Source of the DNA: a virus
Strand: one strand, 5' to 3'
Virus record (IMG/VR): IMGVR_UViG_3300042988_001700
Coordinates: 34,489 to 98,488 of that record
DNA length: 64,000 nt
In this document: positions 7,689-48,700 of the stretch, piece after piece
Layout of the letters: every line of letters starts with the position of its first letter
How positions within the stretch are numbered: the first letter of the stretch is position 1
The notes under the pieces: generated by a model
Database searches by the model: none
Seen by the model: only the letters and a program-made list of their open reading frames with translations
Told to the model about the DNA's origin: nothing
Translations under genes and position numbers: made by a program

Positions 7689-10600
7689 TTAAACCATCCA
7701 TCCGTCTTTTTGTGTTCTGTCACCTACTATTGACGGTGGTCTTTCTGGCGGGAGGGGAACCCCATCATTATATAATTTTCCCTCTTTTGCCCGTCTTTCT
7801 ACGTCCTGAAAATATGCTGTGCCTTGATATGAGTACGGTTTTAATTTCTTTAGTGCCGGTTCAATCTTTCCCTGCTCCCACAGGATAGATACAACATTAC
7901 AAAATGCTCTTGCAAGCAGGTGTCCACTTTCTGGCTTAGTATCATTCATGGTCCAAGAACTCATTTGCCGTGAGAAATTCTGGCAACAATCATGTATTAA
8001 CAGTTTTCCACGCTCTAAAATCCTTTGACCGTACAGTATTGCACCATTTTCATCATACCGCACGTTCTTACGAAGAGTTATTCTGTACTTTCGGTATGCG
8101 CTGCGCATGTCTCCGCTGCCTGTCTTACTGAACATTTCGTCATTAGCATACCATTCCCAGCCCTGCAAATTGCGATACAAATTTCCAGTTGTCTTCCTGA
8201 TGGATGAAATCAGTGAGGAGATAACGCGCTCTGGTGCCGGTGATCCAAATAGAAATTCATCAAAAACTATCAGTCTTCCGGTCTTTGCAGTCCAAACCAT
8301 GAACAGAACACCAGTATTCTGCGCGCTATCGGTCCACTGGCTGACTATTAACCGCGTACCATTGTCTAAATTGTCCCAACCAATAACAAAATTCGAAGTA
8401 TCGCCCCTATAATCCTTGAACACTCGATTCCCAGACGTAAGCAACTTATACGCTCCCGACACACCATCTATTTGATCCCGCTTCCCAAGAGGAAATGCGC
8501 CTGCTTCTGATAGAAACGACTGATTCCACGGGCCGCGCAATAAAAACACATGTCCATTTTCAGCCAGAGCACACCACGGACGCGCTCTTTCTGTTTTCTC
8601 CCCTGTCGGAGTATCGGCATATACAACGCGATCGGGGAGAACGTTTTTCTTGAAGTGCATTGTAACAAATTTTCCAGCGCTCCCCTTTTCTTCTTCGATT
8701 CCGACCTCAACAACTCTCCCGTCACGATCAGCGCATAGCCGTACCTTGGTCTCAGTGACAGCCGGGGTTGTCCTAAAATGTTCTACGTCTGCTATATACA
8801 AATCAGCGCCATATAAACCAACCTTTGGACCGGCAGTCCAATCCGGATTTTTCCCGGGCTTCACCTCGCTTGCAGCAAAATCCCAATATCTCAGCCACTT
8901 TATACCATCTGGGGCTTGGTCTACAATCTTAAACCATTCAGGCTTAAACATTCCGCCCTTATAGCTGATATTCCAGTTGCCATGTAACAGTCTCTCCTTG
9001 GTAACAGCATCCTGTGCGCTTAGAGTGCTTTTGTATGATGGATCAGCACTTGGGTTGTCGTCTAATGTAGCAGCGATAAACGTAAAACTCTTTGGCGGCT
9101 GCCCGTCCTCATCTCTCCAGTCCTCCGGAACCCATATCACCTTGTCGTCCTGAACTGTCATGTATCTGATTACCCCGGAGCGCTCTTGGATAGCATATCC
9201 TGTGTCTGGATCGATCCACCAATCAACTAACTCACGCACCCAACCTCCAATTGGATCGTCCTTGTCTGTCGGGTTGGTTGTTGCCCTCACATAGCACGGG
9301 CCGACATATTCGTCTGGACGCCGGGACCTTGTCACCAAATACCAGAACTGAGCCCTAGAATTCCCCGTCCAACAACACCTTCCATTTACTCGAATATAAA
9401 AATTATTGTTATCTTCTACTTCTGGACAATAAACCTTACCTGAATACTTTTCAGTATACCAATCGTTTGGCTTTGTCTGACAATGTGACCGCTCAGATAC
9501 AGATATTCTCCACACATCAAACCCAGACTTAGTTCTATGATACGACTTTGTGGCAACAAGTCCCAAGTTAAACGCCATTATCTGTAAATCGTCAATAAGA
9601 CCAGAGCTACATAGCCCAATTGTTATTCCTTTTGACTTGTTTATATATCCATCACCACCAACAAAGCAATCCCAAAAAAGGCGTTGCTGTCTTTTTGAGG
9701 ACCCCAACAACCATTTTGGCAATCTTCTTTCGTGCTGATTTCCGTATGGTTTTAACAAATCATATAGCTGTCGGCTACATATAATAAACGATCCATCTTT
9801 TCTGTATTTCCACCGATAGCCCAACTCGTCAAGAATGTCACTTATTTCTTTGACATGTTCAATTTTTGTCTGTCGTATATTGACTATCCTACTATTTGTT
9901 CTATTTTTCATGGGGAACGCGCACCCCTCAGAAAAATACCAACCAAGAAACTTTATCCAAACATCAATATTCAACTTATTAATGGAATTAGAATTTTTAC
10001 CGTGACCACGCCAATTCGGCATATCAAGTAAAACATCATCAACTTCATTCCCTATAAAATTACCAGACCTTGGAATGTAACATCCTTTTGTTACCTCTTG
10101 TGCCTTTCTGAATTTCCACTCGGTTCTTTTGTTCGAAGAAACCATCACATTATGATTAGGTGTTACCCTAAAGGATACTCCGTTACGCTGTTTTATACAC
10201 TTTAAATCGCCATCGTAATTAAATGCGTGTAGTTGTTTTATTTTTTTGTATTCGATATCCCAACTATGATTCAACGAGGCGGCCTTGTCACCATTGGATA
10301 AATCCTTAATATTTTTCCACCCCGAATCTGTTAAAACATCAGTATCTTCCGTCAAACAAAAATGTGTTAGCTCGTCAAAACCGATAAAAGGATATTGCGC
10401 ACCCTGGTGGTCGAACCTATTCTTCTCATGCTCCAAATGAGAAAAAGCTATTTTTGCTCCTGAAGGAAACCTGTGCGTCAACTTCCCCTCAATCGGTACG
10501 GCTCCCTGGGATCGATATAGATTAACAGATGTGTCCCATAGCCCACCACCAATTGTAACTTGCTTGGATGTTCGGCGAAACGTGACGCCGTTGAAGGCGG

Positions 10601-11834
10601 GGTCGGCAACATTGCGTAATGGATCAAGAAGAAGGCAAAACGAATTATGCGTTACAATGAAGTCATTGCACATATACAGGCCGTTTGGATTCGACACTGT
10701 TATGCAGCGCATCGGAACAGTATTCCCGGTTCTCTCAACCGATACCACGCGACGATACATTTTTAATTGCTGATTCAACCCCTGAAGAACAGACTTCTTT
10801 CGCTCTATACGAAACAACTTCTCCGGCTGCGGATGCTTAATGTATAGCCGATATGATGTATGGCAATACACTTTTTCGCCGTTTGCGTCACGGTAGAACG
10901 GTTCTTTAGGAGTTATTACGACCGTAGAGCCAAGAGACCTCAGAATAAACGCTACATCATCGGCTAACTGCTTGCTGGAAGATGAATATTCGATATATCC
11001 ATCCTTTTCGACGTGTCCATCAGTATCAAGCAGACCTTGAATTATAGAATATCTATCATTAATCGACGCCCACTTGAATGCGTCCGGGATAAACTTCTCA
11101 TGCGACCGCCTGTTATCCAGACCATATAAGCGCATTATAGCAAGCAAATCCTTGCGGCTGTCGCCAATAAAATTGAATTTATACCCCAACCCACCTTTAA
11201 CACTGCCGGTTAGGTTATAAACACCTAAAATTTCTTCATAATGAGGGACATCGTCACGATGAATATCAAAAGTTATCGTATTTTTTCGCAGACACCCATT
11301 CCCAAGTAACGCCCCCATAGCGTAAGGATTAATACCAAAATCAAAATCGTCAATAGCAGCAAAACATTGTTCCTTGCACACTGGAATTAGCGGCCAATTA
11401 GGTCTTTCTCCAACCGATTCTTGCTCAACAGCCCTATCGCACCACTTTTTTAACCGTAGAGTATCGATTACTTTGCCAGAAGACTCTCCAAATATTCTTT
11501 TACCATTAACCTTTATACCTTTTCCAGATCTCCAAGCTAACCACAAATGCTCTGGACCACACAAAGCACTGGTATAATCGTGAAAAGTTATTCTATACTC
11601 TTCATCATTAACAATGGGATGAACACACTCAACTATTCCAATACTTCCATCAGGATTATTTATAGAGTCACCAACGTTAATGTTAATTAGCTTCTTAACC
11701 CCGTAAGGCGTTATTATATCAGAAGTTAATGGTGCTCGTTTGCCCGGTCCCGCAGAGCCACCAAAAATTGCTATATCGGCTGTGCAAGAAAGAAATGCTG
11801 TTTGCGGTCCTGGATGTGGAGAAATCTGACCCAC
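7689..11834 (-). CDS. terL: terminase large subunit with two inteins and a C-terminal extension
   Basis: after removing inteins: Walker A GGSAGPGK|S, Walker B FIGFDELTHF|S, RATTNP, nuclease RYWDFA...DWTAG...DQIDG; adjacent to terS. Confidence 0.93.
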   Translation of the reverse strand: MGQISPHPGPQTAFLSCTADIAIFGGSAGPGKRAPLTSDIITPYGVKKLININVGDSINNPDGSIGIVECVHPIVNDEEYRITFHDYTSALCGPEHLWLAWRSGKGIKVNGKRIFGESSGKVIDTLRLKKWCDRAVEQESVGERPNWPLIPVCKEQCFAAIDDFDFGINPYAMGALLGNGCLRKNTITFDIHRDDVPHYEEILGVYNLTGSVKGGLGYKFNFIGDSRKDLLAIMRLYGLDNRRSHEKFIPDAFKWASINDRYSIIQGLLDTDGHVEKDGYIEYSSSSKQLADDVAFILRSLGSTVVITPKEPFYRDANGEKVYCHTSYRLYIKHPQPEKLFRIERKKSVLQGLNQQLKMYRRVVSVERTGNTVPMRCITVSNPNGLYMCNDFIVTHNSFCLLLDPLRNVADPAFNGVTFRRTSKQVTIGGGLWDTSVNLYRSQGAVPIEGKLTHRFPSGAKIAFSHLEHEKNRFDHQGAQYPFIGFDELTHFCLTEDTDVLTDSGWKNIKDLSNGDKAASLNHSWDIEYKKIKQLHAFNYDGDLKCIKQRNGVSFRVTPNHNVMVSSNKRTEWKFRKAQEVTKGCYIPRSGNFIGNEVDDVLLDMPNWRGHGKNSNSINKLNIDVWIKFLGWYFSEGCAFPMKNRTNSRIVNIRQTKIEHVKEISDILDELGYRWKYRKDGSFIICSRQLYDLLKPYGNQHERRLPKWLLGSSKRQQRLFWDCFVGGDGYINKSKGITIGLCSSGLIDDLQIMAFNLGLVATKSYHRTKSGFDVWRISVSERSHCQTKPNDWYTEKYSGKVYCPEVEDNNNFYIRVNGRCCWTGNSRAQFWYLVTRSRRPDEYVGPCYVRATTNPTDKDDPIGGWVRELVDWWIDPDTGYAIQERSGVIRYMTVQDDKVIWVPEDWRDEDGQPPKSFTFIAATLDDNPSADPSYKSTLSAQDAVTKERLLHGNWNISYKGGMFKPEWFKIVDQAPDGIKWLRYWDFAASEVKPGKNPDWTAGPKVGLYGADLYIADVEHFRTTPAVTETKVRLCADRDGRVVEVGIEEEKGSAGKFVTMHFKKNVLPDRVVYADTPTGEKTERARPWCALAENGHVFLLRGPWNQSFLSEAGAFPLGKRDQIDGVSGAYKLLTSGNRVFKDYRGDTSNFVIGWDNLDNGTRLIVSQWTDSAQNTGVLFMVWTAKTGRLIVFDEFLFGSPAPERVISSLISSIRKTTGNLYRNLQGWEWYANDEMFSKTGSGDMRSAYRKYRITLRKNVRYDENGAILYGQRILERGKLLIHDCCQNFSRQMSSWTMNDTKPESGHLLARAFCNVVSILWEQGKIEPALKKLKPYSYQGTAYFQDVERRAKEGKLYNDGVPLPPERPPSIVGDRTQKDGWMV
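9360..10358 (-). mobile_element. TerL intein 2 (333 aa, LAGLIDADG) just after Walker B
   Basis: THF|CLTEDTDVLTDSGW ... VTPNH ... VYCPEV ... WTGN|S; LGWYFSEG and FVGGDG motifs. Confidence 0.9.
10644..11738 (-). mobile_element. TerL intein 1 (365 aa, class-3-like, LAGLIDADG) in Walker A
   Basis: GPGK|RAPLTSDIITPYG ... EHLW ... MRCITV ... IVTHN|S; MGALLGNG and IQGLLDTDG endonuclease motifs. Confidence 0.9.
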
Positions 11835-11840
11835 GGAATC

Positions 11841-12473
11841 TTATTCCTTTTGTTTTTTCGAAGCAGCAGCTATAACCCTAGCTGACTCTTTCCCGTTAGA
11901 TGGAAGGATTATCAAATTGGTTTCCACCTTAACGGACGGACCTTCTGGCTTTTCAAGTCCAAGCATGCGAGCTAACCGGTCAAGAGACTTGTCCTTATCG
12001 TAGGTTTCAAGCTTTAGCTCTGCCAAATCAACATCGATCTTGACCTCACCATTGGTTGTCGTTCGCGTGCGACACTTGGAAGATATGCTCTTTACAAGCC
12101 TGGTATCTATTTCTGACACTGGCTTTATCTTAACGCCTCTCTCGTCATAGGTATAGAAGTCCCCGGCATTGCTAAAGGCGTGTAGCGCTGTTTCCTCGAC
12201 CACTCGGTCACGTAATGCGGCAAAGTGCGCACCAGTATCGGCTCTAAGCCTGGCTATCTCTTCCTTTATGTGTGGCATGTTAAGTAACTCGTAAGCAATA
12301 GTCGTAGCAGAATGCTCTGAATAGCCTGCCTGCTTTGCTGACCGTGCACCATTAAAGCACAGGATGTATTTCTGACAAAACAGCCGTTGTTGATCGTTTA
12401 ATCCCTTTTTACGCGGCTTTCCAACTTTTTTTTTCGAAACTTTTTTGGAAATGGTGTTTTGTACTGTCTTCAT
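11841..12473 (-). CDS. terS: terminase small subunit
   Basis: LNDQQRLFCQKY...NGARSAKQAGYS...ELL...IKEEI HTH; KLETYDKDKSL; upstream of terL. Confidence 0.88.
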   Translation of the reverse strand: MKTVQNTISKKVSKKKVGKPRKKGLNDQQRLFCQKYILCFNGARSAKQAGYSEHSATTIAYELLNMPHIKEEIARLRADTGAHFAALRDRVVEETALHAFSNAGDFYTYDERGVKIKPVSEIDTRLVKSISSKCRTRTTTNGEVKIDVDLAELKLETYDKDKSLDRLARMLGLEKPEGPSVKVETNLIILPSNGKESARVIAAASKKQKE

Positions 12474-12478
12474 AACCC

Positions 12479-12817
12479 CTATAATACATCCTTTTTGGGT
12501 GATTGTGCAACTTTTTCTTCTTTTAAATAGCTATCTGCTTTTACTATTATATCCCTTATGCGCCTATACTCTTTGTCTAAGAACGCTATTTTTTCTTTCT
12601 TCATGAAAGATTCGCTGTCGAACGATTTTTTTTTGGACTTAATAGCTGCGTCTATTTGAATCTTTCGGAATTTATTATCAGCAATCCCAAAATAAGCGTT
12701 AAGCAGCTCTTTGATTGCCGAATCAGCTTTGTCATTAAAATACTTGGTTGAATTGAGAAGGCAATCACTATGCCAACCAACTATCATTGCCCGGGAGTTA
12801 TTTCTTTTCTGTTTCAT
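12479..12817 (-). CDS. hypothetical protein
   Basis: ORF in operon. Confidence 0.5.
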   Translation of the reverse strand: MKQKRNNSRAMIVGWHSDCLLNSTKYFNDKADSAIKELLNAYFGIADNKFRKIQIDAAIKSKKKSFDSESFMKKEKIAFLDKEYRRIRDIIVKADSYLKEEKVAQSPKKDVL

Positions 12818-12986
12818 TTATTTTACCATCACCATTCTCTACATATTCAATGTCAACAGGCACGCACGCCTTACAATACTTTCGACGGTCTTGCTTGCAA
12901 TCAAGTAATTCTTCATGCGGCAATTCGTGTGGACATCCTTCACACCATATTGCGAATGTTTTTATTTTTGGACATTTCATCATCAT
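12798..12986 (-). CDS. small Cys/His-rich protein, paralog of the MTase C-terminal module
   Basis: MMMKCP...WCEGCPHELPHEE...CKACVPVD. Confidence 0.6.
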   Translation of the reverse strand: MMMKCPKIKTFAIWCEGCPHELPHEELLDCKQDRRKYCKACVPVDIEYVENGDGKINETEKK

Positions 12987-13783
12987 AATTTTCTATTCCT
13001 TTTAACATTAGCACTCCTTATGATTTTTAGTTCATATTCACGCTCTTCAACCATAGAATTCCACCTGTTGACCTTTTCTTGGTATTCAGCTACCTTTTCC
13101 TTTGCTATCTTTAAATGACGAAGACACATTTCTTCACGCGTTTCTTCGCGCTCGTCGTCAACAGGAACACACATACTGCAATATTTATTAACTGATTTTT
13201 TGCAATCGGACTTTTCTTCGTGAGGCAACTCATGATCGCACCCTGCACACCACTCCGTTTTCTTTTTTGGGCATTTCATCATCATTTTTTTTTCTTCTCC
13301 TTTTTTCATAAAGCACACCCAATGGGTTTTTTGCGCTTTACCTGATGGATGGCCAAAAAGAGGCTTCTGGTCGGTGCACCTTAGTATGTTTCTGAGAGGA
13401 ATATCACACTCATTCCATTTAAAAACCAGTATTCCGCTTGGTTTGAGCACTCTAAAGCATTCTGAGAATCCTTTTTCGATATCCTCCGTCCACGTTTGCC
13501 GATCAAGCGCTCCATAGCACTTAGCCATGTAGCTTTTTTCTCCAAGGAAAAGGTGTGGTGGATCGAAAACCACAAGCTTGAAAGTTTCGTCTGGGATATC
13601 CATATTGCGGAAGTCCATTACTCTATCAGGCTGGCAGCTTCTTACCCTCCCATGTATTCCGTTACCAACAATCTCCGGCGGCATCGTGCGCTTGTCTATA
13701 AAAAGAACATCTGGGTTGTGCTTGTCGAACCAAAACGCCCGGCCACCACAGCACGCATCTAAAATATCTGGATAGTACGTCAT
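12983..13783 (-). CDS. SAM-dependent amino-methyltransferase, apparently fused to a Cys-rich small protein
   Basis: likely start MTYYPDILDACCGG (ATG 13783, GGAGG RBS); FDPPH, LVFKW and PLFGH motifs. Confidence 0.8.
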   Translation of the reverse strand: MTYYPDILDACCGGRAFWFDKHNPDVLFIDKRTMPPEIVGNGIHGRVRSCQPDRVMDFRNMDIPDETFKLVVFDPPHLFLGEKSYMAKCYGALDRQTWTEDIEKGFSECFRVLKPSGILVFKWNECDIPLRNILRCTDQKPLFGHPSGKAQKTHWVCFMKKGEEKKMMMKCPKKKTEWCAGCDHELPHEEKSDCKKSVNKYCSMCVPVDDEREETREEMCLRHLKIAKEKVAEYQEKVNRWNSMVEEREYELKIIRSANVKRNRKL

Positions 13784-14824
13784 ACCTCCCAATACCCTTC
13801 GATTAAGCCATAAACAGTATACTCGTCGCCGTTCGAATCCTTGCATACCATCCTGCTTACATTTTGGAGCCAGACGATATACTTTCCCTCCGGCTCTTTT
13901 ACGACAACCGGATACCATGCGAACCATTGGTGCCAATCGTATTTGTTTTTCGTCCGAATCTTCAGTTTCACAATAAAACCCTTTGAATGAGTTATGAGGA
14001 ATTTCATTACCTTTTCACCTTGAATGGATTTTTACGATCAAACCCCCGATGCCCCAAAGACTCGGAGGAAACAATTATGTCTTCATACATTTTAATGTAT
14101 TGCGCCTCTTCCAATAACCAATTTCCTGCCATTGCTTGCTTTGCGCATGCGGCCAAATATCGCTTGTGCATCTTACTCAGCAGGGCTTTATGTTTAGAGA
14201 TAGATTCGATCATTTCCCCTCCCAAACTCCGTTAAAATAAGCCGGAACTGTCCCCGCGTGTATCGGAGTGTGGTTGACCATCAATTGGCCAGTAGCTCCA
14301 TAGCTCCACTCGATTTCGTCATACCTCCACACACGGCCATCTTTGTGAAACACATACACGAACCCGGCAATATTCCGAACCGTAAGCCCAACCGATTCCA
14401 TGTGTTTGCGGAATACTGGCGGCTCCTGATTGTTGTGGTCTGGAATTAAAACCGGTTCGTTGGAACCACGGCCAAGCGCGTCTTCGACGTCCAATGGTAT
14501 CTGGAGACTGGGGCGTCTATTGTTCACCGCTTTCATAAGATAATCAACGATATTATAAACACTCCCATCTTTGATAGAATCAATCCCAGAATTGTATTCA
14601 TCTATCTTATCGGGAGATTTAATAGCCACAAAAGCCTCTAAACACTCCTTACACCTCTGTGTCCAGCCCATCCCCCACTTGGTAACATCAAGCACACAAC
14701 CAAATAATCGGCACTCAACCTGCATACCCAATTTTGATATGCCAAGATATTTGCAGAATTTTCCTGGCTCAGAAGCACAATTCTTCTCTCCACACTCTAT
14801 TTCGTCAGTCCTCACGTATTTCAT
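13780..14824 (-). CDS. three hypothetical genes (13780-14007, 14007-~14213, 14210-14824)
   Basis: overlapping starts and stops. Confidence 0.5.
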
Positions 14825-21328: not shown

Positions 21329-22129
21329 TTACGATAATAAGTATCCACCCCACTGGCGAGCCATCTCCCTGGCTATGCCACTATACGTTTTTGCTCGCAA
21401 AGCAGCCCGCTCTTTGCTTGGACCCAACTTATTCTGGCCAGATGGCGTTTGATTGCTCCAGACTGGTTTCCCCAAGAAAGTATCCTTGCAAGCGAATTCG
21501 TATCCATTCACAGTAACGATTCGTATTCCTTCTTCGTGAGGACCAACGCATTCACAATCCGAATAGTGTTCACCATGCTCAGAGCACCATGGCTCGTCAC
21601 AGCATGGACACAACGGAAGATCGGAAGCATAAACAACCGGCTTAAAATTTTTTGGAGGAATTATTACTGTATGCTCTAACTTCGGAAACCCTTTAAGCCA
21701 CAAGCATGTTTGTTTACTGGCATCGTCGCCAAAAAACCACGGCTGAACAATCTGGTCTGGCTTGCGGATCGATTTACTTAAAGCGCCAATTGGATTCTCT
21801 ATTGCAATATGACCACAATTGGCATCCCATATAGAAAAAACAAATTCCTTTGCCTGCTCAGTAAGACGCGGATCGCGCAACCCTCTCGTTGTCCAGTGCA
21901 TACCACTCGAACAAAGATAGGTGCACGGAGGAAAAGCTATTATAGCATCCCAATGATATTCATCTAATATTGGCAAAACATCATCCTGAAAATGCCATTC
22001 CGCATGCTCCCCGCTTGTAGGAAGAATATCGCACGAATACGCCGTAAAACCAAGCTTACGGAATTCACTGCATACCACCTGAGATTCTTCGCACGCGATT
22101 AAAACATTAAAATCTTTTGCGCATTTCAT
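21329..22129 (-). CDS. DNA cytosine-5 methyltransferase-like protein with Cys-rich insertion
   Basis: VLIACEESQ (motif I), AFPPCT (catalytic PC), AIENP (motif VI), KQTCLWL, RAKTY. Confidence 0.8.
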   Translation of the reverse strand: MKCAKDFNVLIACEESQVVCSEFRKLGFTAYSCDILPTSGEHAEWHFQDDVLPILDEYHWDAIIAFPPCTYLCSSGMHWTTRGLRDPRLTEQAKEFVFSIWDANCGHIAIENPIGALSKSIRKPDQIVQPWFFGDDASKQTCLWLKGFPKLEHTVIIPPKNFKPVVYASDLPLCPCCDEPWCSEHGEHYSDCECVGPHEEGIRIVTVNGYEFACKDTFLGKPVWSNQTPSGQNKLGPSKERAALRAKTYSGIAREMARQWGGYLLS

Positions 22130-22137
22130 AAAAACAC

Positions 22138-22844
22138 CTAATTACCATTTATTGTTTTAGCATGACCCAAAATACTTTTTATGTCACACTTAATACTATC
22201 AGGACTAAGCGCCCTCGTCCAACCACAAGCAATAGCAACGATGTCTTCGGGAAGCTTTTCTAATTCACCACTATTTGTCGCAGAATTAATTATCTTCGGC
22301 AAGACAATTATTGCTACAGCCTCTTTTGTTGTTGGAATCATCATTGAAGAACCAATACATAAAAAACAGAAAATAGCAGAAATAATAGACCACCGCGCAA
22401 TCGAATGTTTAATTTTAGTTTTTTCAGTATCAGGCAAATCGCATTCATTTTCGAATACCGTCATAATAAAAATCCAAGTAGCAATATTTACCATTATGAC
22501 AGTTACACCAATACCCCTTACAAGCCCAATCATAGCATCTAACTTAAGCAAAAAATAAATATCTAAAGCACTCATATTTTAACAACCCCTTGTTTTAATT
22601 AAAATATTACATATTGCCCGGTTTTTGCCATCACATATCGAACGAAAGAGCGAACATGAGCACATTCCAATTTATCTCCAGAATGCGCAACCTCCCATTC
22701 TTTATAAATCTTTTCCATATCAATACGAGAATCGCTTGTCTCTTTGACATAATCACGGATCTCTTGTAACGCCTCGCGATACGAAACCCCCACATGTTGA
22801 TCAACCAGACTTTGCAAAGCAGCTTGAGCTATCGCTATACCCAC
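22138..22844 (-). CDS. membrane protein (22138-22575) and hypothetical protein (22599-22844)
   Basis: TM helices; RBSs. Confidence 0.55.
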
Positions 22845-22875
22845 ATTAACCTCCGTATAAAAATTGAATTACTAA

Positions 22876-22988
22876 ACTTTGTTGGTGCGCCCTTTTGAAC
22901 GGCTTTTAAGCACCGTCTACTATTTATGGACCCGTTAACTCCCGGCCCACGGGCCAAGTGGCGGGATTAGAGCACACCAACGAAATTT
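22876..22988 (-). ncRNA. structured RNA motif, copy A
   Basis: 13-bp closing stem GUUGGUGUGCUCU/AGGGCGCACCAAC with G-U pairs on the minus strand; core shared with the copy at 25.6 kb. Confidence 0.55.
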
Positions 22989-23006
22989 AACACCAGCAAA
23001 ATCTAT

Positions 23007-23079
23007 AGTCCCCCACCGGAATCGAACCGGCCCGTCACGGAAGTACTACCTCCGATTCCATCACCAGAATGTGAAGGAC
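23007..23079 (-). tRNA. degenerate tRNA-like cloverleaf (anticodon position AGT, no CCA)
   Basis: acceptor GTCCTTC/GGGGGAC, D-stem ATTC/GAAT, anticodon stem CGGAG/TTCCG with 7-nt loop GTAGTAC, T-arm GCCGG-TTCGATT-CCGGT; lacks U8 and a canonical D-loop. Confidence 0.5.
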
Positions 23080-23201
23080 ACACATTGACACCTTGTGTGG
23101 TGCGGAACACGCTACAGAAGAGCCTTTGACCATCCACCACCAAAGGAATCAGAGCATCGGCAGTTGGAGTCAACCGTTTCCGCACCATACAAGGCACCAA
23201 A

Positions 23202-24848
23202 CTATTCAAAACAAACACTGTTAAATCCATTTTCACAATTAACACCTTCAAGCCAATACCGCGTGTGCCAATTGTGGATCTCAACGCGCTCAATAGTGTA
23301 TTGAGATCCAACCTCCAAAACACCACGCGGATCTGAAACGCTGCTAACCTTTGCCTGTTCGTCGCTGCAACCAGTATAAGTTACAACGCTTCCGCTATCC
23401 TTAATTCCTCCCATAATCCCTCCAGATTAAATTTACGCTGCCGGAAAAGTGTCTTGTGGTGCGCCAGTCTACTTTTCCCCCGCGCACAGGATATTTAAGC
23501 AGCAACAATACAAATATAACTTGTGCCAATTATAATTGCAACTTAGTTATGGGAGTATCTTCAAAAACATGATACACGAAATTTCCATTATCCATCTGTA
23601 TTGTTCCAACGTATTCACCTTCCATTCTTTCTCGGGATTCTCCAGTAACGTAAATCGTAAACGTGCGCTCCTGCTTAATAACTGAATCGGTGTCTGGGAC
23701 TAAAAACCATATAGCAGCTCTTTCTTTTTGGTTTTGGACACATAATATTTTTGATCCAATCGGAACAAATATAAAGTTCTTTTCGGGATGGTCTAAATAA
23801 AACTTATAAATTGATTTCATGAGCACTCTCCTTAGTGTGGTATTTTGTGGGTTGGAGGAAAATACACGATGTCCATATTAAATTCACGTTCTGACATAAC
23901 GTCTATTGTTATACTAACCCCTTTTGACAAAGCATATTCTTTTACTTCATCCGGAATTACACTTTCCTTTGGAAGCAGCAATGTACTTCCTTCTAAAGGC
24001 AAGCGTTTCGTTTCGTAAAACTCTACTAAATCATCGATGTATTGTTTGTTTATTAACATTAAGCAACCTATTTTATTTTTTGACTTTTCTATACATTGGA
24101 TAGTACGCTGTTTTATTCCAACGTTTTCCAACCGAAACAGTATTTCCAATAACTTTAAAAGAATCCTCTCTTGCAACATAATCGTCGGGAAGAATAACAT
24201 CCCCCTTGCGTAACGCAATATAGGTTGGGTCTTCGGGATATGAAATCTTCCTTTCGCGGATTCCTTCAACCACAGGCAGCACAGCATCTCCACCGCCAGC
24301 GACCAAACCAGCCATATGAAATTGGCGCAACTCTATATCACTAATAGCAAACCATTCCATTTTACTCTCCATTCTCCATTTACCTACAATTTAATACCCT
24401 TCGAACTACACAGGTCAGTAGGGTCAAGGCACAGACCAGATTCGGTTGCGCTACGATAACGGCAAATTGCATCAGGACAACCGCAAGTTCTATCTACAAC
24501 TACTTGGCTTCTCGATGAATCGCAAGTTATCTCTTTGCCGATCTGTTTAATCCACCCACGTACCTGGCGAGCATCACGGCCATTTCCGGCACGATCGCAC
24601 CCTTTTGAAAAAGCCTCCATATCTTCAAGCATTTTTTGTATTTTTGTGGCTGGTGCCGGAACAGAAATTCCTTTCGGCTTAGATTCCTTCTGACCATTGA
24701 CCCACACCTGCAATAATTCGATAATGGCATTAGCGTCGTTAGTGGACTCTATATTAACGGCGGTCCACTGATACCCGTTGTGGGTGATACGAAGACACCA
24801 ATCGCCATACCTATCACATTCCATTTCACACCTAAACTTGTTCGACAT
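23202..24848 (-). CDS. small hypothetical genes (23202-23414, 23530-23826, 23832-~24059, 24073-24372, 24384-24848)
   Basis: RBS-preceded ORFs in tandem. Confidence 0.5.
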
Positions 24849-24851
24849 ACA

Positions 24852-26244
24852 CTAAACCCCTTTATTGTTACTTAACTGTCTACTCCACCGCTCTATGTGA
24901 GCAGAGGCATGTATTGGTTCGCTATCGGCATGTTTTACAGCAAAATCGTGCATCTCGGAAGAAACCTCCAATGCGCTGTTGTGCGATAAGTTTTGAACAA
25001 CCGCCAGTTCTGCGCGAATTGCTTCCATCGCCCTGCGCAAAGCCATTGGCCTCATTTGTGGAAGCTCGACATCGACTATCTCAAGTGCTTTTTCTAAGTT
25101 CATTCCCATGAGCGCCTCCGAACATAAAAATGACAAAAACTTTCAACCAACGTTCCGCAAACCCGCAAGCCGTATTAAAGTGAAAACCTGCTGCCGCACT
25201 CTGGACAGAAATTCCACACGACGCTCACTCCACTCCCACCACAAACCTGACATGGCTTGAATTGCGTGTTAGGCGTAGTGCCCAACTCCACAGTTTTAAG
25301 AGCGCGAATTTGATCGCACAAAATAGCAAAGTTGTCATAATGATAAGCCATAGATTGACCGAGCGACTCTCGAACCTTGTTCTCCGCCACCATACCATCG
25401 CGCTCTGTTATCAAAGCCTGTAATTCTATAAAGTTGTTTTCCACGATCGCGCTCCTATAAGTTAAAGGAATTTCGCCCAACGTTTTCCGCACTCCAGAAC
25501 GTGAGGTATTTTACCAGTAGAGCTACCCCGCATTTTGGGCTGCGGTTGTTGTAAGATGTATGCGGTTCTTCCATAATTTTCAGCGCGGCTAATACTCGTT
25601 CTACACTTTCTCCGGCAGTGTTGCCATCATGGGACCCGTTAACTACGAGATGTTGGTTATCCCCTTACGGGACAAGTGGGGGCCGCGCCTACAATTTCAA
25701 AGAACCGCATATTTCTTACAACGTTCAGCCAACACTGCGCGACAGTTTGCGCGACGGATGCACTGAACACTCCGCACCCATACACGCACCGTTAAATCGC
25801 ATATACCCACAATTCTTACCATATAAAGCGCAAATTTCGACGCTTGGCTTGTTGGACGCTGCAAACTTTTTTTCCAAATAAAGCCAGGCCGCTTTCGCTG
25901 CTTGTTTCTGCGCAATAGGATAGCACAGCCAATCGTGTTTTTGCTTCCACCACTCTTCGAAACGCTCATCTTCAGCGGCCATAAGAACTCCAAAGAAAAA
26001 GTTTATTGCATTCCAACTTGACAAATGTATGCCGTGCTTACACTACTGGTTTCCATTTAGCACAAACACCTGCCTGCATGCTACATTCTTTATTGCCACA
26101 ACTGATGCAGCATGGCATACTTTGTTTGTTGGTTGACTGTTGAGCGAGTACAGCGGTTTTCAGAGTTTGCCACTCCTCGCAATCGCGAACAAGAACGTAC
26201 TGTGATAAAAACTTTTCAAACATACCAACCTCTATGTCTAACAC
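24852..26244 (-). CDS. cassette ORFs 26038-26244, 25725-25982, 25175-25444, 24852-25109 (hypothetical; three have Cys-rich tails)
   Basis: GGAG RBS before each; C-termini encoded by the attC-like hairpins. Confidence 0.6.
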
Positions 26245-26303
26245 GGTAAACTCCTACGAAAAAATTTAAGAGCGAAATCGCAACCAACTTGACAAAGTGT
26301 GCC
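24965..26303 (-). mobile_element. integron-like cassette array: attC-like hairpins at 26011-26135, 25714-25857, 25474-25556, 25143-25275; half-sites at 26281-26303 and 24965-24986
   Basis: each site is ...YAAC [imperfect inverted repeat] GTTG...; each cassette is T-rich leader, RBS and a short ORF reading into the site; R' of site n is complementary to R'' of cassette n+1. Confidence 0.7.
25582..25690 (-). ncRNA. structured RNA motif, copy B (inside a cassette)
   Basis: closing stem GCGCGGC/GCCGCGC; core CCACUUGUCCCGU...AGUUAACGGGUCC. Confidence 0.5.
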
Positions 26304-26304
26304 A

Positions 26305-27903
26305 TTAACCACATTTAATTTCAATATCATCAAAAACAACCGGAATCAACTCTTTAAACTTTTTAAGCATCGGAATCGTAAGCTCAAGCATCTGAGGATG
26401 TGGCTTTCCACTTTCCCCGGCAGCACGCAACTTAAAAAACTTGCGCCACTCCCTCAAATTTGCAGTTAAAAACATCTCGGTCTTTGTGCTCCTATTCAGG
26501 ACCGACCGCGCCATCTGGGGAGATTCACCAAGCTCTATCAATTTAAGATAGCTCTTTTCAGCGCTCTTGCACGCATCAATCCATACCGAAGCCGATTCCG
26601 GGTTCTTAAAATGCTCAATAGGATCAATGAACGTAACTGAATTATCAAATTTGTCCTTTGAATAGTTGCAGTTATGAACAACGACACCGTTAGACACAAA
26701 ATTTTTAAAATCAGACATAACAGACACATCATAAACATCTACAAACCCAACCGATTCTATTGATACAATTTTATCAAAAAATATAGTTTCCAAATTTTTC
26801 GAATGAATTCTAAAATGACACGAAGCACAAGTAGTTATTAAATTCTCTACAGCATTATTATTGCGATCACCATCTACGTGATGAACATTTAGTCCAGTTT
26901 CAGAAGAGCATATTTCGCATTTGTTTTTTTGTATTTTTCTATAAGACCCTTTTCCAAGTTTATACAATCTATCTTTTTTTTGTTTTCCAGTATAACGACC
27001 CTCATTCCAATGGTTTTCACGTAAAGAATTTATTTGTCTTTTTACCCTTTCGTCCGAACCGTCCAACCCAGCGTTCCAAGGTTTTCTGCCAATATTAAAA
27101 TAGCTTTTTGGTTTTTTTGGCAACTTATGTTTTCTAACCCAACTCTTAATAGCAGACAACCCAAAGCCAAACTCTCTACTTATATCTACTGCCGTTTTGT
27201 TCAACACATTATACTGGTTATATAGCCAATCCCTGTTCTTATAAAGAAGACAAGACCCATTTACGGCGACGCATCCACCAACAAGCAACTCCTTGACTGC
27301 CACATATCCGTAATCAGTATATATTTTATGATCAGCAGTAGCTACAATAGAATACCCCAAAAAAGTATTTATTTTAATAACAGGCTTTACTCCAGAATAA
27401 AAAATATCGTTGATTTTACAAAATTGCAACTCTCCAGTGCGCTCATTATATTGACGTATTCCAATTCTTTTCCACGAACCATTACAAGAATTTATCTTCT
27501 TTTTATACAAATCACTTAGCGTTAATCCATAATGAGGATTTTTTGTGGTTAGTTTCATGTTTCCAGCAACACAGTATCTCGTACTTTCTTGCGATACCCC
27601 CGGATTCCATTCCATATCGAATACAAAATCGTCATCAACATGGACAAGCCGATGCCTAGTCCACTCCTGGCTCACGCCAAGGTCGCAAATAACCTTGACA
27701 CTAACAGAAACATGCTCAAGCATCGATTCGTGCCCACCGTCTATCGCGTGACTTTTAACAAAAGAATACGCAGGGTTTATTCCCGGCAAACAACCATCTT
27801 TAGAAGACTTGTAACAGGTCCTTCCGGCCTCCTCAATATGATTAAGAGCAATAAATCCCGGAAATAACATTTTTACAGTGAACTCAGAAAGCATAATATT
27901 CAT
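26305..27903 (-). CDS. thyX: FAD-dependent thymidylate synthase with intein
   Basis: GHESMLEH, RHR...SQESTRY|CNY, ARSVL...NLREWRKFFKLR...HPQM; likely start MNIMLSEF at 27903. Confidence 0.93.
   Translation of the reverse strand: MNIMLSEFTVKMLFPGFIALNHIEEAGRTCYKSSKDGCLPGINPAYSFVKSHAIDGGHESMLEHVSVSVKVICDLGVSQEWTRHRLVHVDDDFVFDMEWNPGVSQESTRYCVAGNMKLTTKNPHYGLTLSDLYKKKINSCNGSWKRIGIRQYNERTGELQFCKINDIFYSGVKPVIKINTFLGYSIVATADHKIYTDYGYVAVKELLVGGCVAVNGSCLLYKNRDWLYNQYNVLNKTAVDISREFGFGLSAIKSWVRKHKLPKKPKSYFNIGRKPWNAGLDGSDERVKRQINSLRENHWNEGRYTGKQKKDRLYKLGKGSYRKIQKNKCEICSSETGLNVHHVDGDRNNNAVENLITTCASCHFRIHSKNLETIFFDKIVSIESVGFVDVYDVSVMSDFKNFVSNGVVVHNCNYSKDKFDNSVTFIDPIEHFKNPESASVWIDACKSAEKSYLKLIELGESPQMARSVLNRSTKTEMFLTANLREWRKFFKLRAAGESGKPHPQMLELTIPMLKKFKELIPVVFDDIEIKCG
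26671..27573 (-). mobile_element. ThyX intein (301 aa) with HTH and HNH endonuclease
   Basis: STRY|CVAGNMKL ... ATADH ... CEIC...VHHVDGDRNNN...NLITTCASCH ... VYDVSV...NGVVVHN|C. Confidence 0.92.
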
Positions 27904-28502
27904 CGTACACCAACCTCGTCGGACAACAAGAGTATTAACGCACTGATCTTTCCCATACAGTCCCAAGCCTTCCTGATGTGCGCCTGAATGCTTCCGCGAC
28001 TATTTTCACCAGCAGCACTTCTAACCACGGTCAACTTCTCTGATTCTATTTGATATATAAGGCACAGCCTTTCACACGCTCTAACAACACTGGTAGTGTC
28101 TTGATATTTATTAAGCAATAACCAGTGCATATAGCGTATCTGATCATCACAATCCATTTCAGCCGTCTTCTTGTATAAAACATTCGAATACAATAGCGAC
28201 CGAACAGCGGCAATATCACGATCGAATTGGTCTATAACTATACCCTCCGGGCTTTTTGGATCTATTGTCACCATCCGCATAGACACATTGGCAGAAGGAA
28301 CAGCGACCGGATCTTTTTTTGCACGATCAAGCGCAATAGAATCATCAAGACGCTTCTTTTCGACAGAAGCCTTATAAGCAGCTTCAGCATCACCAAAACC
28401 AGAAACATCGATAGCAGGAACGCGACGATTCATAACCACCGAACCATCACCAGAGAAAGACACCAACGAAAAGCACAAAACAAACAAAAAAACCTTAAAC
28501 AT
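27900..28502 (-). CDS. exported hypothetical protein
   Basis: signal-peptide-like N-terminus, GGAGG RBS. Confidence 0.6.
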   Translation of the reverse strand: MFKVFLFVLCFSLVSFSGDGSVVMNRRVPAIDVSGFGDAEAAYKASVEKKRLDDSIALDRAKKDPVAVPSANVSMRMVTIDPKSPEGIVIDQFDRDIAAVRSLLYSNVLYKKTAEMDCDDQIRYMHWLLLNKYQDTTSVVRACERLCLIYQIESEKLTVVRSAAGENSRGSIQAHIRKAWDCMGKISALILLLSDEVGVR

Positions 28503-45763: not shown

Positions 45764-48700
45764 TTAATTATTCCTCCCCTTGTATGTTAAATTGTACCAT
45801 GCGTTTGCTCTTCCGAGCTGTCTTAACTCGCGCGGAGCCAGGGAAGCTATAAAGTGGTTCCTGTATTTGTCCGGCAACGCGGCTAAAGGATCTGCGTTTC
45901 GAATGCTTGTGCTTATGCCATCTATCGTACCTCCTGCTTTAAGGTATTCTTTAAGCCAACGTATAGCTGACTTCTGGTCTTTATACACTATCGATTTCTT
46001 ATAATAATATAGTGCATTCGCCTTGTTTGTTGGGTCATTTTGATTGACTTCATACTTGTTGTCGTCAAGGAATTTATAAACCTTTGATTTTATCTCCTGA
46101 TAAGCCGCTTCGCCGGGATCTGTGATATAAACAACGGCAGTCGGAATACTGTTGATAAAACCCTTGCTTGGTTTTCCGGCAAGATACCTATACGGGATAT
46201 CCATAGCCATCGTTCTCGCAACATTCTCCCATGGATCTCGTATCGGGGAAGGATTAAAAACATTCGGGTAAAAAGATTTCTTTGTCAATAACTCAACGGG
46301 AGACTTGATCATTGGCGTCAAAGATGTCCCGATTCTCTGGAATGGGGCAACCGCCGCCTCTTTGATCATATCAGAAAACTTCTTGGAGCCGCTTGCAAGG
46401 TCCGAAACGTCATAGGGCAGGTCTTCTAAGCCTATCCACGAAAGCGCGTCAGAAAGCGCCCCTTGGAATCTTAAGGAGGCAATTGTCCCATCGCTTCTTC
46501 GTGACGTCAAATTTCCGTTCGCCAGCTCTTCGATATTCGGCAATAACAAGTGCGCTTGCCGTCTCCGCTGCATAAGCTCTTCTTTTTCGTCATCCGGGAA
46601 TAATTGATTCCAAAGCATGACCGCTGCATACAGAGCGCCAGCTTTAACCATAAGCATTGCCGAAGAGAATGCGGCGTTCTTCCCAAGAATTGCTGCGCTC
46701 GTAAGACCAAGTTTCGCGGTCCTGGCTGCACGGGTTTTTGAATCACGGTCCCCTTCGTGCGGAGCGTTTTGCATTAGGCGATAGTATCTTGGTGCGTTTA
46801 TTTCAAGCCAGCTATAAAACGGAATTAGGTACCTTCTAAGCCACTGGCCGCCTTTCGATATGTTGCCGTAGTCTCCAATAAGCTCACGCGCCAGCTTTGC
46901 CGCCTTGTCATCTTGGTCTGTGATTTTTTCTATCGCCAGCCTGTTGGATGCGCCGAACGTAGTATCGGGATACTTCTTGAGATGATCGACAAAAAATCTA
47001 TAAGCAGCAAGCCTCAAAATATTTTCTCTCCATTGAGTGAAATTCTTGGTTGTCTGCCAATATCTTTCGATCATACCGACTTTTTCTCCCGAGAGAATCT
47101 TAAGGAACATGTCTTTGTTCAAATCAGTTATCTCGCTAACCGAAAGCCCGGAACTTATTACGCCTTTTTTGATAAGTTTCAACATTTCTTCTGTCGGTGC
47201 TTTCCCCTTAAGATTGTAACCCCAAAGGTCTTTTGCTGCTTTTTGAGCATAGGCCATTATTTTTGGGTCATAAGCCATAGCGATATCCAAATCCCCAGAC
47301 ATATTATTGATATTGTACTTAATAACACTCGGAGGATTGAGAAGTCTCCAAATTTTCCAAGAATTTTGGATTTTTTGAAGTGCTTTCGCTATAAAATTGT
47401 CAATCGGGAAATCAACAACCTTGTCAAGCGTAGCTGCAAGTTCTGACGGCAATGCCCACGATTGGCGTTTTCTCAGGGCAAGCAATGTCTGAAGATCCTG
47501 TTCCTCTACAACCTGGCTCCCATTTTGATCTATTTGAGAAGCAATTTTGTCAGGAATAGTTGTCGCTTCGTACATTCCAAACCCTCTCTTTGGCTGCCAT
47601 TCGACATATCCTTCAGGTAAAATGTCCTGCCATTTCTTAAATTGTGCGCCGGTGGTAGATTTAATCAACTCTTTTCTTTGGCTAATTGCCTTGAATATCA
47701 TTCCGGCGTACTGTGAACCATCAAGCCCCTTGTCCATTAAATAAGAAAGAAATTCCCACCAATCCTCGTCAGATCCGGCAGTGGAATCGACATCCATTTC
47801 AACGCCACTTTTTTTAGAGAAGTATCCGCTTGACAACTTCTCTATAATCAAACTGTATTCTGGTGCATCTATTTCATCCTTTGATGCCATTTTTTCAAGC
47901 TGACTAACAGCAATGGCAATACTTTTTCGATACGGCATAAATGGATCGAACATGTCGTAGTCGGGCGATTTTTCGTCTATTCCGGCTGCCTTTGCCAATC
48001 TCTTCTTTGTAAGTTCATTATTCATTTCAGTAGCATCTTGCTTCAGTTGGCCAGATATATCTGCCACCATTTTCATCTTTTTGAGAGAATCTGCCGCTTC
48101 GAGCAATGCTATTCCTTGGGCAACAACCTCAAATTCAGATTCGGTATATTTCGTGTTGTACGGCTTATCGTATCCAACGCGACCGTTCTGCCAACCTTTT
48201 CTTTTGGTCCTGAAGTCAGAAGAAGTGGTTCCAGTTGTAAGATATTCCTTTGTTTCCATAGCTTCAATAACTTGGTGGTGGAAATATCTATCATCCTTTA
48301 ATACGTCTTCATGCAAGAATTTCTCTCTAACTAAAGATTCCCTCAAGTCCCTCATAAATCGATTTCTTAAATCAAGAGCATTAGAAATATCCGGATTAAG
48401 AGCAGCAAGCCGCATAGCCTCTTTATTATCAGCCTTGACATCGTCAATGCTTTGGTATCCAAACGGAAGCTTCTTTGGTGTTCCGTCAGGAAATGTATAT
48501 AATCCGGATTCGATGTCTTTCAGAAGATCGGGTAGTATTATGTTTCTTTCGAAAACAATCTGCTTTTTAGGACCCATCCCGGCGATAATGCCTTTTACCA
48601 CATTGTATGCACTCGCCTTTGAGAATTCTGGAACAGACTCAAAGTGCCTTAAAATATCTATCTCTCGCGCAAAAACAACCGGGTCAAGAAGAGGATAGTG

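Follow-up and report, generated by a model that had tools for sequence, protein, structure and literature searches.

The question raised by this locus is whether a row of small genes and palindromes, found behind thyX in a phage genome, is a cassette array of the integron type and, if so, what moves its cassettes. We analysed a stretch of 64,000 nt (hereafter the window, whose coordinates are used throughout). The source phage genome is complete (98,488 bp, i.e. 98.5 kb, with a terminal overlap; 42% GC) and nearly all of its genes lie on the minus strand. No GenBank phage matches it at the DNA level, and protein identity to GenBank phages is at most 40%. Searches of IMG/VR with a neighbouring 154-aa protein, ORF D, thyX, the protein P0002 (see below) and an alignment of the alpha tail returned no usable relatives. 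The array lies between thyX, which is interrupted by an HNH intein (26305-27966, minus strand; Pfam Thy1 6e-27, Intein_splicing 2e-12, HNH), and a block of small genes ending near a tRNA-Thr gene. Our main reading, which we consider probable, is that of a cassette array of the integron type that lacks an integrase and whose sites are non-canonical and translated; which enzyme acts on it, and exactly where the crossover falls, are inferences. It rests on the complementarity footprint, on the conservation of structure and not of sequence, on a centre that varies and on the units that relatives have exchanged, all of which are properties of integron cassettes.

The array comprises five units on the minus strand (24852-26305) and begins with a half-site, directly after the thyX stop codon. 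Each unit opens with GTTG and some unit-specific bases (R0 to R4), followed by a T-rich leader, a ribosome binding site (RBS) of the GGAG type and a start codon, and ends within the ORF, at unit-specific bases followed by CAAC (L1 to L5). The units are separated by imperfect palindromes of the form YAAC...GTTR, and the palindrome running from Li to Ri encodes the C-terminal tail of the ORF. By motif reading, the right-hand motifs are R0 GTTGGTTGC (26288-26280), R1 GTTGGAATG (26017-26009), R2 GTTGTAAGA (25722-25714), R3 GTTGGGCGA (25481-25473) and R4 GTTGGTTGA (25151-25143), and the left-hand motifs are L1 CAACCAAC (26135-26128), L2 GCGTCCAAC (25859-25851), L3 TCTTACAAC (25556-25548), L4 CGCCTAAC (25275-25268) and L5 TCGCACAAC (24986-24978). 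The preliminary description of this DNA had claimed these motifs, a half-site after thyX and, behind the right-hand sites, an RBS and short ORFs continuing into the hairpins. All the motifs are present on the minus strand, off by a base or two at most, the half-site is found at 26305-26289, and an RBS and a start follow each R site, with ORFs reading through into the hairpins.

The half-site consists of a right arm of the delta type (ATGGCACACTTTGTCAA) followed by R0 (26280-26305, minus strand); it is a direct repeat of the R1 region and pairs with 26112-26135. Unit A (26128-26288, minus strand) contains R0, read here as GTTGGTTG, the leader, the RBS, the N-terminal half of ORF A (start at 26244) and L1. 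Site 1 (26014-26131, minus strand), a CAAC..GTTG imperfect palindrome of the delta type, encodes the Cys-rich tail of ORF A (ORF 26038-26244). Unit B (25851-26017, minus strand) runs from GTTGGA at R1 through leader, RBS and the N-terminal half of ORF B (start at 25982) to TCCAAC at L2, and site 2 (25713-25860, minus strand) is a folded site encoding the tail of ORF B, which reads through it to a stop codon 5 nt ahead of GTTG. The third unit (25548-25722, minus strand) carries a non-coding, structured cargo in which R2 and L3 close a stem of about 38 bp, as judged from inverted repeats and minimum free energy (MFE). The site behind it, site 3 (25472-25557, minus strand), is short, has a beta-like left arm (CAACAACCGCAGCCCAAAA) and sits within a remnant ORF, ORF C. 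Unit D (25268-25481, minus strand) joins R3 (GTTGGGCG), leader, RBS and the N-terminal domain of ORF D (start at 25444) to L4; the folded site 4 (25142-25277, minus strand) then encodes the zinc-ribbon tail of ORF D, for which Pfam gives zinc-ribbon hints. Unit E (24978-25151, minus strand) consists of R4, leader, RBS, the N-terminal half of ORF E and L5. The array ends with a terminal tail module of the E type (SALEV...NNKGV; 24852-24986, minus strand) that has no right arm; in another record, L014, a module of this kind does close with an R site. The tails of ORFs A, B and D are Cys-rich, that of ORF D containing a CxxC...CxxC zinc ribbon.

A separate unit lies outside the array, bounded by GTTGGTGTGC and GCGCACCAAC (22881-22981, minus strand). 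It surrounds a second copy of the structured cargo, right after the tRNA-Thr gene (23007-23079), and shares CCACTTGnCCCGT and AGTTAACGGGTCC with the first copy (25548-25722). A third, looser copy was found behind a beta site in an unrelated phage (L009, 3251-3408, minus strand). This non-coding cargo has no Rfam match and its function is unknown; no consensus fold of the three copies was obtained, and Rfam matches up to E = 10 between 22300 and 29000 include none of relevance. The N-terminal 55 residues of ORF D (ORF portion 25175-25444) are a member of a widespread small-protein family (164 representatives at E <= 1e-3) without a Pfam model, whose proteins often stand alone with a length of 55-70 aa.

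We compared folding energies against dinucleotide shuffles. Among the hairpins formed by each site on its own, L1..R1 alone is significant (MFE z = -3.2), the remaining three reaching z values of -1.9, -1.4 and +0.7. The strongest structure is R2..L3 (MFE -73.5 vs. -43.0; z = -8.25), which is a pairing with the next site and not a hairpin of the attC type. We also used a covariance model (R1, a name it shares with a site) made from 11 sites of other, unrelated phages, the sites of the window being excluded from training. In 6 kb searched without filters on both strands (22000-28000), the top three matches of this model are hairpin 2 (25713-25860; 26.2 bits, E = 9e-6), hairpin 3 (25472-25557; 21.7 bits, E = 1e-4) and hairpin 4 (25142-25277; 16.1 bits, E = 3e-3), all on the minus strand; site 3 was also retrieved when about 400 kb were searched with a model. 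The hairpins of the window are thus real members of a family despite their modest folding energies. Of the four hairpins proposed initially, hairpins 2, 3 and 4 are recovered by the model and hairpin 1 stands out by its energy; energy alone would not have supported the other three.

In six other phage records, the same model retrieves sites in arrays, with 4-7 sites each. When 24 sites not used for training are aligned, pairing holds in 94% of cells, and single positions show many kinds of compensatory pair; AAC and GTT are invariant in 23-24 of the 24 rows, while the centres differ in sequence. The span from YAAC to GTTR is 47-169 nt. The fold of the beta type can be written x'CAAC-A-CAGGCA-GCCC-..-TTGCCG ... 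CGGCAA-..-GGGC-[GGG bulge]-TGCCTG-A(N2-4)-GTTGy, and one compensatory base change in sites of this type costs the protein an R-to-W substitution. An ORF of at least 90 nt enters every one of the 38 sites examined, with a stop codon within the last 35 nt before GTTR in 31 of them, and the reading frame at YAAC is 0, 1 or 2 in 25, 6 and 7 sites, respectively. Since the sites are paired with compensation and are read in three frames, the conserved entity is a nucleic-acid structure and not a peptide. As ORFs traverse them in any of the three frames, the sites act as a source of interchangeable C-terminal tails, which are often Cys-rich.

According to the preliminary description, the bases behind each right-hand GTT match the left core of the next cassette and not their own. 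In 227 kb of sequence (this genome and related loci), we counted 23 perfect 9-nt repeats of the form GTTGx5...x5'CAAC at a spacing of 50-450 nt. In comparison, 96 control four-base cores of equal GC gave a mean of 2.5 (sd 2.9), the next-highest cores being shifted versions of the GTTG/CAAC motif. The "own" arrangement gave 3 repeats, i.e. the background level. For consecutive sites detected by the model, the six bases after GTTR and the six before the next YAAC pair better than random pairs (P = 0.0016), vs. P = 0.40 for pairing within the same site. The claim thus stands: equal complementarity in controls, which the preliminary description had named as a refutation, was not observed. Within the window, R0/L1, R2/L3 and R3/L4 are complementary (R3/L4 at 7/8), R1/L2 is weak, and the end repeats of unit E (R4/L5) show no complementarity, a failure that had been reported from the outset. 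As a positive control, we used a genuine integron array of the Vibrio type in phage MK672802. At 11 junctions there, reverse-complementing GTTA and the five bases behind it gives the next inverse core, with nine bases out of nine at nine junctions and eight out of nine at two.

A protein search with ORF B retrieved P0002, which up to ..NK is 78% identical to the N-terminal half of ORF B and continues as the C-terminal half of ORF E. Its gene is carried by a JGI contig, L002, and beyond the downstream end of the array this contig and the window are collinear. The edges of homology between the two coincide with R0, L1, R1, L2 and L5: the homology begins exactly at the G of R0, stops about 20 nt beyond L1, resumes just after R1, stops at L2 and restarts just after L5. 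Unit B is 80% identical to L002 487-650, with homology ending at L2, and the terminal E-type tail module is 89% identical to L002 659-934 from just after L5. The contig lacks the entire stretch from L2 to L5, and a B-type tail (right arm) stands ahead of its A unit. It had been accepted beforehand that a fixed gene order among relatives, with breakpoints unrelated to GTT, would refute cassette exchange; the relatives reorder their units instead, with edges at the sites, and both refutation tests of the preliminary description thus favour its interpretation. Breakpoints lie at G|TT, where the crossover had been proposed, and at the L (CAAC) ends as well.

Among 17 small metagenome proteins related to the A homologue of L002, unrelated N-terminal modules are joined to a few tail modules. 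A single N-terminal module was found with the alpha tail, the beta tail, a third type of tail, or alpha and beta in tandem, and one type of tail is joined to at least seven N-terminal modules. The A unit is shared by three phages, but its conservation is confined to the stretch between GTTG and CAAC inclusive: each phage has a left flank and a tail of its own. A change in one end repeat is compensated in the other, GTTGGTTG/CAACCAAC having become GTTGTTTG/CAAACAAC. A mini-site of 64 nt with the arms of site 1 is 98% identical in two unrelated phages and is bounded by AAC and GTTGTGCGAAAT. Beyond A and B, we found no homologous units across genomes, and an indel of 41 nt between the records L009 and L013 has no relation to the sites. 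In another record (L003, 4551-5156), an ORF of 201 aa has two L sites within it, together with an entire module. The R core expected there, GTTGTCGG, reads GATGTCGG, as if a mutation of the core had locked two cassettes into one gene.

Site-family members occur in at least ten unrelated uncultivated phages. The arms of the beta tail are near-identical at the DNA level at ten IMG/VR loci, on nine unrelated contigs of 14-466 kb, and the arms of one site type share 23-26 identical nt across unrelated phages. The beta-type arm is present in 0-2 copies per genome. The exact beta-arm motif gave three matches in 185,579 species genomes, only one of which is a true site, on a 9-kb contig carrying an entire array; the covariance model had no match in 150 further genomes of the same order as that genome. 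All members of the family came from phage contigs, and the bacterial genomes searched yielded none. The model does not recognise real Vibrio attC sites either (best score, 8.7 bits). This blindness and the sites that it detects in unrelated phages bear out the early guess that the sites form a distinct family.

We searched for the enzyme that could act on these sites. The suggestion of a recombinase encoded outside the window did not hold for the four families tested, as the complete 98.5-kb genome has no tyrosine (PF00589), serine (PF00239), IS110 (PF01548) or Y1 (PF01797) recombinase, and Pfam searches on 20 further ORFs gave no recombinase candidate. A tyrosine recombinase is also missing from nine of the ten other site-bearing records, and four of these nine are at least 96% complete. 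Given this absence of PF00589 matches, the array is CALIN-like at most (CALINs being attC clusters without integrase). An all-against-all comparison of seven site-bearing phage genomes revealed only structural and replication genes as shared, with no enzyme candidate. The exception is L012, a phage of about 25% GC, in which a gene for a XerA-like tyrosine recombinase of 298 aa (10226-11122) is directly followed by a co-directional array (11123-13845) with at least six sites and about 42% GC. The best match of this recombinase is a XerA-type model; the XerC, XerD and integron-integrase models also match, and all matches are below the cut-offs. Immediately behind the recombinase gene, the array opens with GTTATACG-9 nt-CGTATAAC, which is a possible primary site. 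L012 is the only case seen here of an array adjoining a recombinase gene, and L038, which has a distant homologue of this recombinase, has no array. Readings involving bridge RNA (IS110), IS200/605, an intein or an invertase were dropped because the enzymes are absent or the geometry is unfit.

To our knowledge, phage-borne attC clusters have so far been reported only as rare, canonical-looking sites. CALINs were described in 17 of 10,705 phage genomes and involve virulent phages (Qi et al. 2023, PMC9892861), and five of six phage attC sites assayed with IntI1 recombined (PMC9892861). In the literature, we found no report of translated, non-canonical sites of the kind present in the window, nor of Xer-type enzymes beside such phage arrays. 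The array resembles integrons and CALINs in its co-directional small ORFs separated by imperfect palindromes, in the invariant AAC...GTT ends around a variable centre, and in the pairing of the bases behind GTT with the next inverse core, as in the array of MK672802. As with CALINs, the phage has no integrase and the cassette content varies among relatives. The geometry differs, however, from canonical attC: spacers are of 1-2 nt vs. 4-6 nt in attC, and the asymmetry of the arms is opposite, the bulge being on the 3' arm of the coding strand and hence mirrored relative to the ORFs. By eye, some cores fit RYYYAAC/GTTRRRY (GCCTAAC, GTCCAAC, GTTGGGC) but many do not (e.g. TTACAAC, GTTGTAA, GTTGGTT). 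Moreover, ORFs of the window family span the whole site and stop 5-12 nt ahead of GTTR, whereas the sole ORF checked in the Vibrio array stops just ahead of its attC. Exchange in the window family takes place at both ends of the site, and the only adjacent enzyme seen is the Xer-like recombinase of L012, co-directional with its array.

Xer/dif systems include the pdif modules of Acinetobacter plasmids and IMEX elements such as the CTX phage. They are similar in that gene modules are bracketed by sites for Xer-type tyrosine recombinases, and the CTX site acts in a folded, single-stranded form (see PMC7399989). In the window family, by contrast, the conserved part is limited to YAAC/GTTR plus structure. 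On reading the junctions, we saw no dyad of a 28-bp dif-like site (11-6-11), and no dedicated search for the dif pattern was made.

How such an array could work can be proposed from these observations. Folded, imperfectly palindromic DNA sites, about 50-170 nt long and with YAAC and GTTR at their ends, alternate with units that hold either a structured non-coding cargo or the N-terminal part of a small gene behind a leader and an RBS. Circular cassettes, each carrying one palindromic site and opened at the GTT/AAC triplet, would yield the complementarity with the next site. A tyrosine recombinase acting in trans would recognise the structure of the folded, single-stranded site and cut it at the conserved triplet; this enzyme is inferred, the candidates being a compact Xer-like recombinase such as that beside the L012 array, or a host enzyme. 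That the cassettes may travel as circles is likewise an inference, and neither circles nor population variants were examined. If either folded strand can recombine, which is presumed here, crossovers at both YAA|C and G|TTR would follow, and with them the two-ended (L and R) breakpoints. The predicted outcome is that small accessory genes are gained, lost and re-ordered, and that N- and C-terminal halves are recombined in frame.

Several points nevertheless count against the main reading: the genome has no recombinase of the four families, the geometry is not that of attC, and breakpoints at both ends of the site are unlike the one-sided crossover of IntI. To these may be added the three of four hairpins in the window that are not significant by energy alone. 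Action of IntI itself on these sites is not shown. We also put forward, as a tentative idea that could easily prove wrong, that phages run their own analogue of the integron, in which compact Xer-type recombinases that some phages carry act in trans on the arrays of other phages, at folded sites that stay open for translation in three frames. If so, a crossover at either end of a site would move small genes or swap N-terminal domains and C-terminal tails in frame. Small accessory proteins, perhaps counter-defence proteins, that circulate among unrelated phages would thus have a natural device for shuffling their domains. Integrons are regarded as a bacterial device, and a distinct family of sites shared by phages, with the same footprint, points to a currency of gene exchange from phage to phage. 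Recombination at translated sites would, in addition, join N- and C-termini in new combinations, which would explain by a defined mechanism why small phage proteins are mosaic. For a test, both strands of the four sites and one Xer-like candidate are at hand.

The main rival to the integron-like reading is homologous recombination of the PeSL type combined with a role in RNA. PeSLs, known from T4-type phages, are direct repeats with an early promoter and a terminator stem-loop that act by homologous recombination (PMC2839356, PMC4122927). There too, small accessory ORFs in a plastic region lie between repeats of intergenic motifs, and the insertions, deletions and replacements that distinguish related phages have their borders at these motifs; this kind of modular shuffling is documented (PMC2839356, PMC4122927). 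According to this explanation, the arms and R sites are regulatory or RNA-structural elements, such as signals for mRNA processing or stability, units are exchanged by ordinary or relaxed homologous recombination through Erf and an exonuclease, and the complementarity is maintained by selection on RNA helices. The phage does encode an Erf-like annealing protein and an exonuclease, the 23-26 nt of arm identity between unrelated phages are sufficient for annealing, all sites lie in transcribed and translated sequence, and breakpoints at both ends of the sites are explained. However, the sites of the window are long palindromes that are translated and whose inverted ends differ from unit to unit, and the search of the minus strand at R0-R4 showed neither a sigma-70-like promoter nor an intrinsic terminator; this is a weak negative result, as the promoter type of the host is unknown. 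Homology alone does not explain why non-homologous partners are joined exactly at ...AC|GTTG, and stems melted by ribosomes at each pass would make poor stabilisers. Furthermore, a real integron has exactly this "next, not own" footprint, and there the recombination mechanism produces it. We regard this explanation, taken as a whole, as rather unlikely.

We consider still less likely that the sites are selfish palindromic elements, similar to MITEs or to the palindromic elements of Rickettsia, inserted in frame at the 3' ends of phage genes and accumulated into an array. Palindromes of about 100-150 nt within coding sequence are indeed translated in Rickettsia palindromic elements and in-frame MITEs (PMC10969869), and the sites of the window are likewise translated inside host ORFs, have conserved inverted ends around a variable centre and are spread over unrelated phages. 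But those elements occur as many near-identical copies scattered in one genome (PMC10969869), whereas the window family has few copies per type, with only one or two of a given type per genome, in ordered arrays that bear a cassette-type footprint. We saw no target-site duplications at the borders of the units and no transposase of the tested families. The complementary ends of each intervening unit would remain unexplained, and the difference between L002 and the window suggests that whole units between GTT triplets, and not the palindrome alone, are what changes.

Finally, that the units are tandemly duplicated paralogous small genes, whose linker codons (xxC AAC) and upstream regions mimic cores with complementarity by chance, can draw on the similar upstream regions of A and B, and of D, E and the region behind B, and on the N-x-x-S-x-P-x-C pattern common to the tails, but it is very improbable and already largely refuted by the controls (complementarity about ninefold over control cores), the model, the covariation and the frames, as the ORFs cannot be aligned outside the junction and the identical architecture recurs in three reading frames and, with covariation, in unrelated phages.

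Other differences between the window and L002 lie downstream of the array. About 690 nt (roughly 23848-24532) are additional in the window, between the gene encoding the 154-aa protein and a DUF7352 gene (region 23832-24372); this extra region includes a AACGTTGG motif (24118-24125). The gene for the 154-aa protein is itself 72 nt longer than in L002 (24627-24698). Elsewhere in the window, the large terminase (1381 aa; 7689-11834) has additional segments matching PHROG families of primase, helicase and thymidylate synthase, which may be inteins, although no intein model was applied to them. A single ORF of 5858 aa extends from 45764 to 63340.
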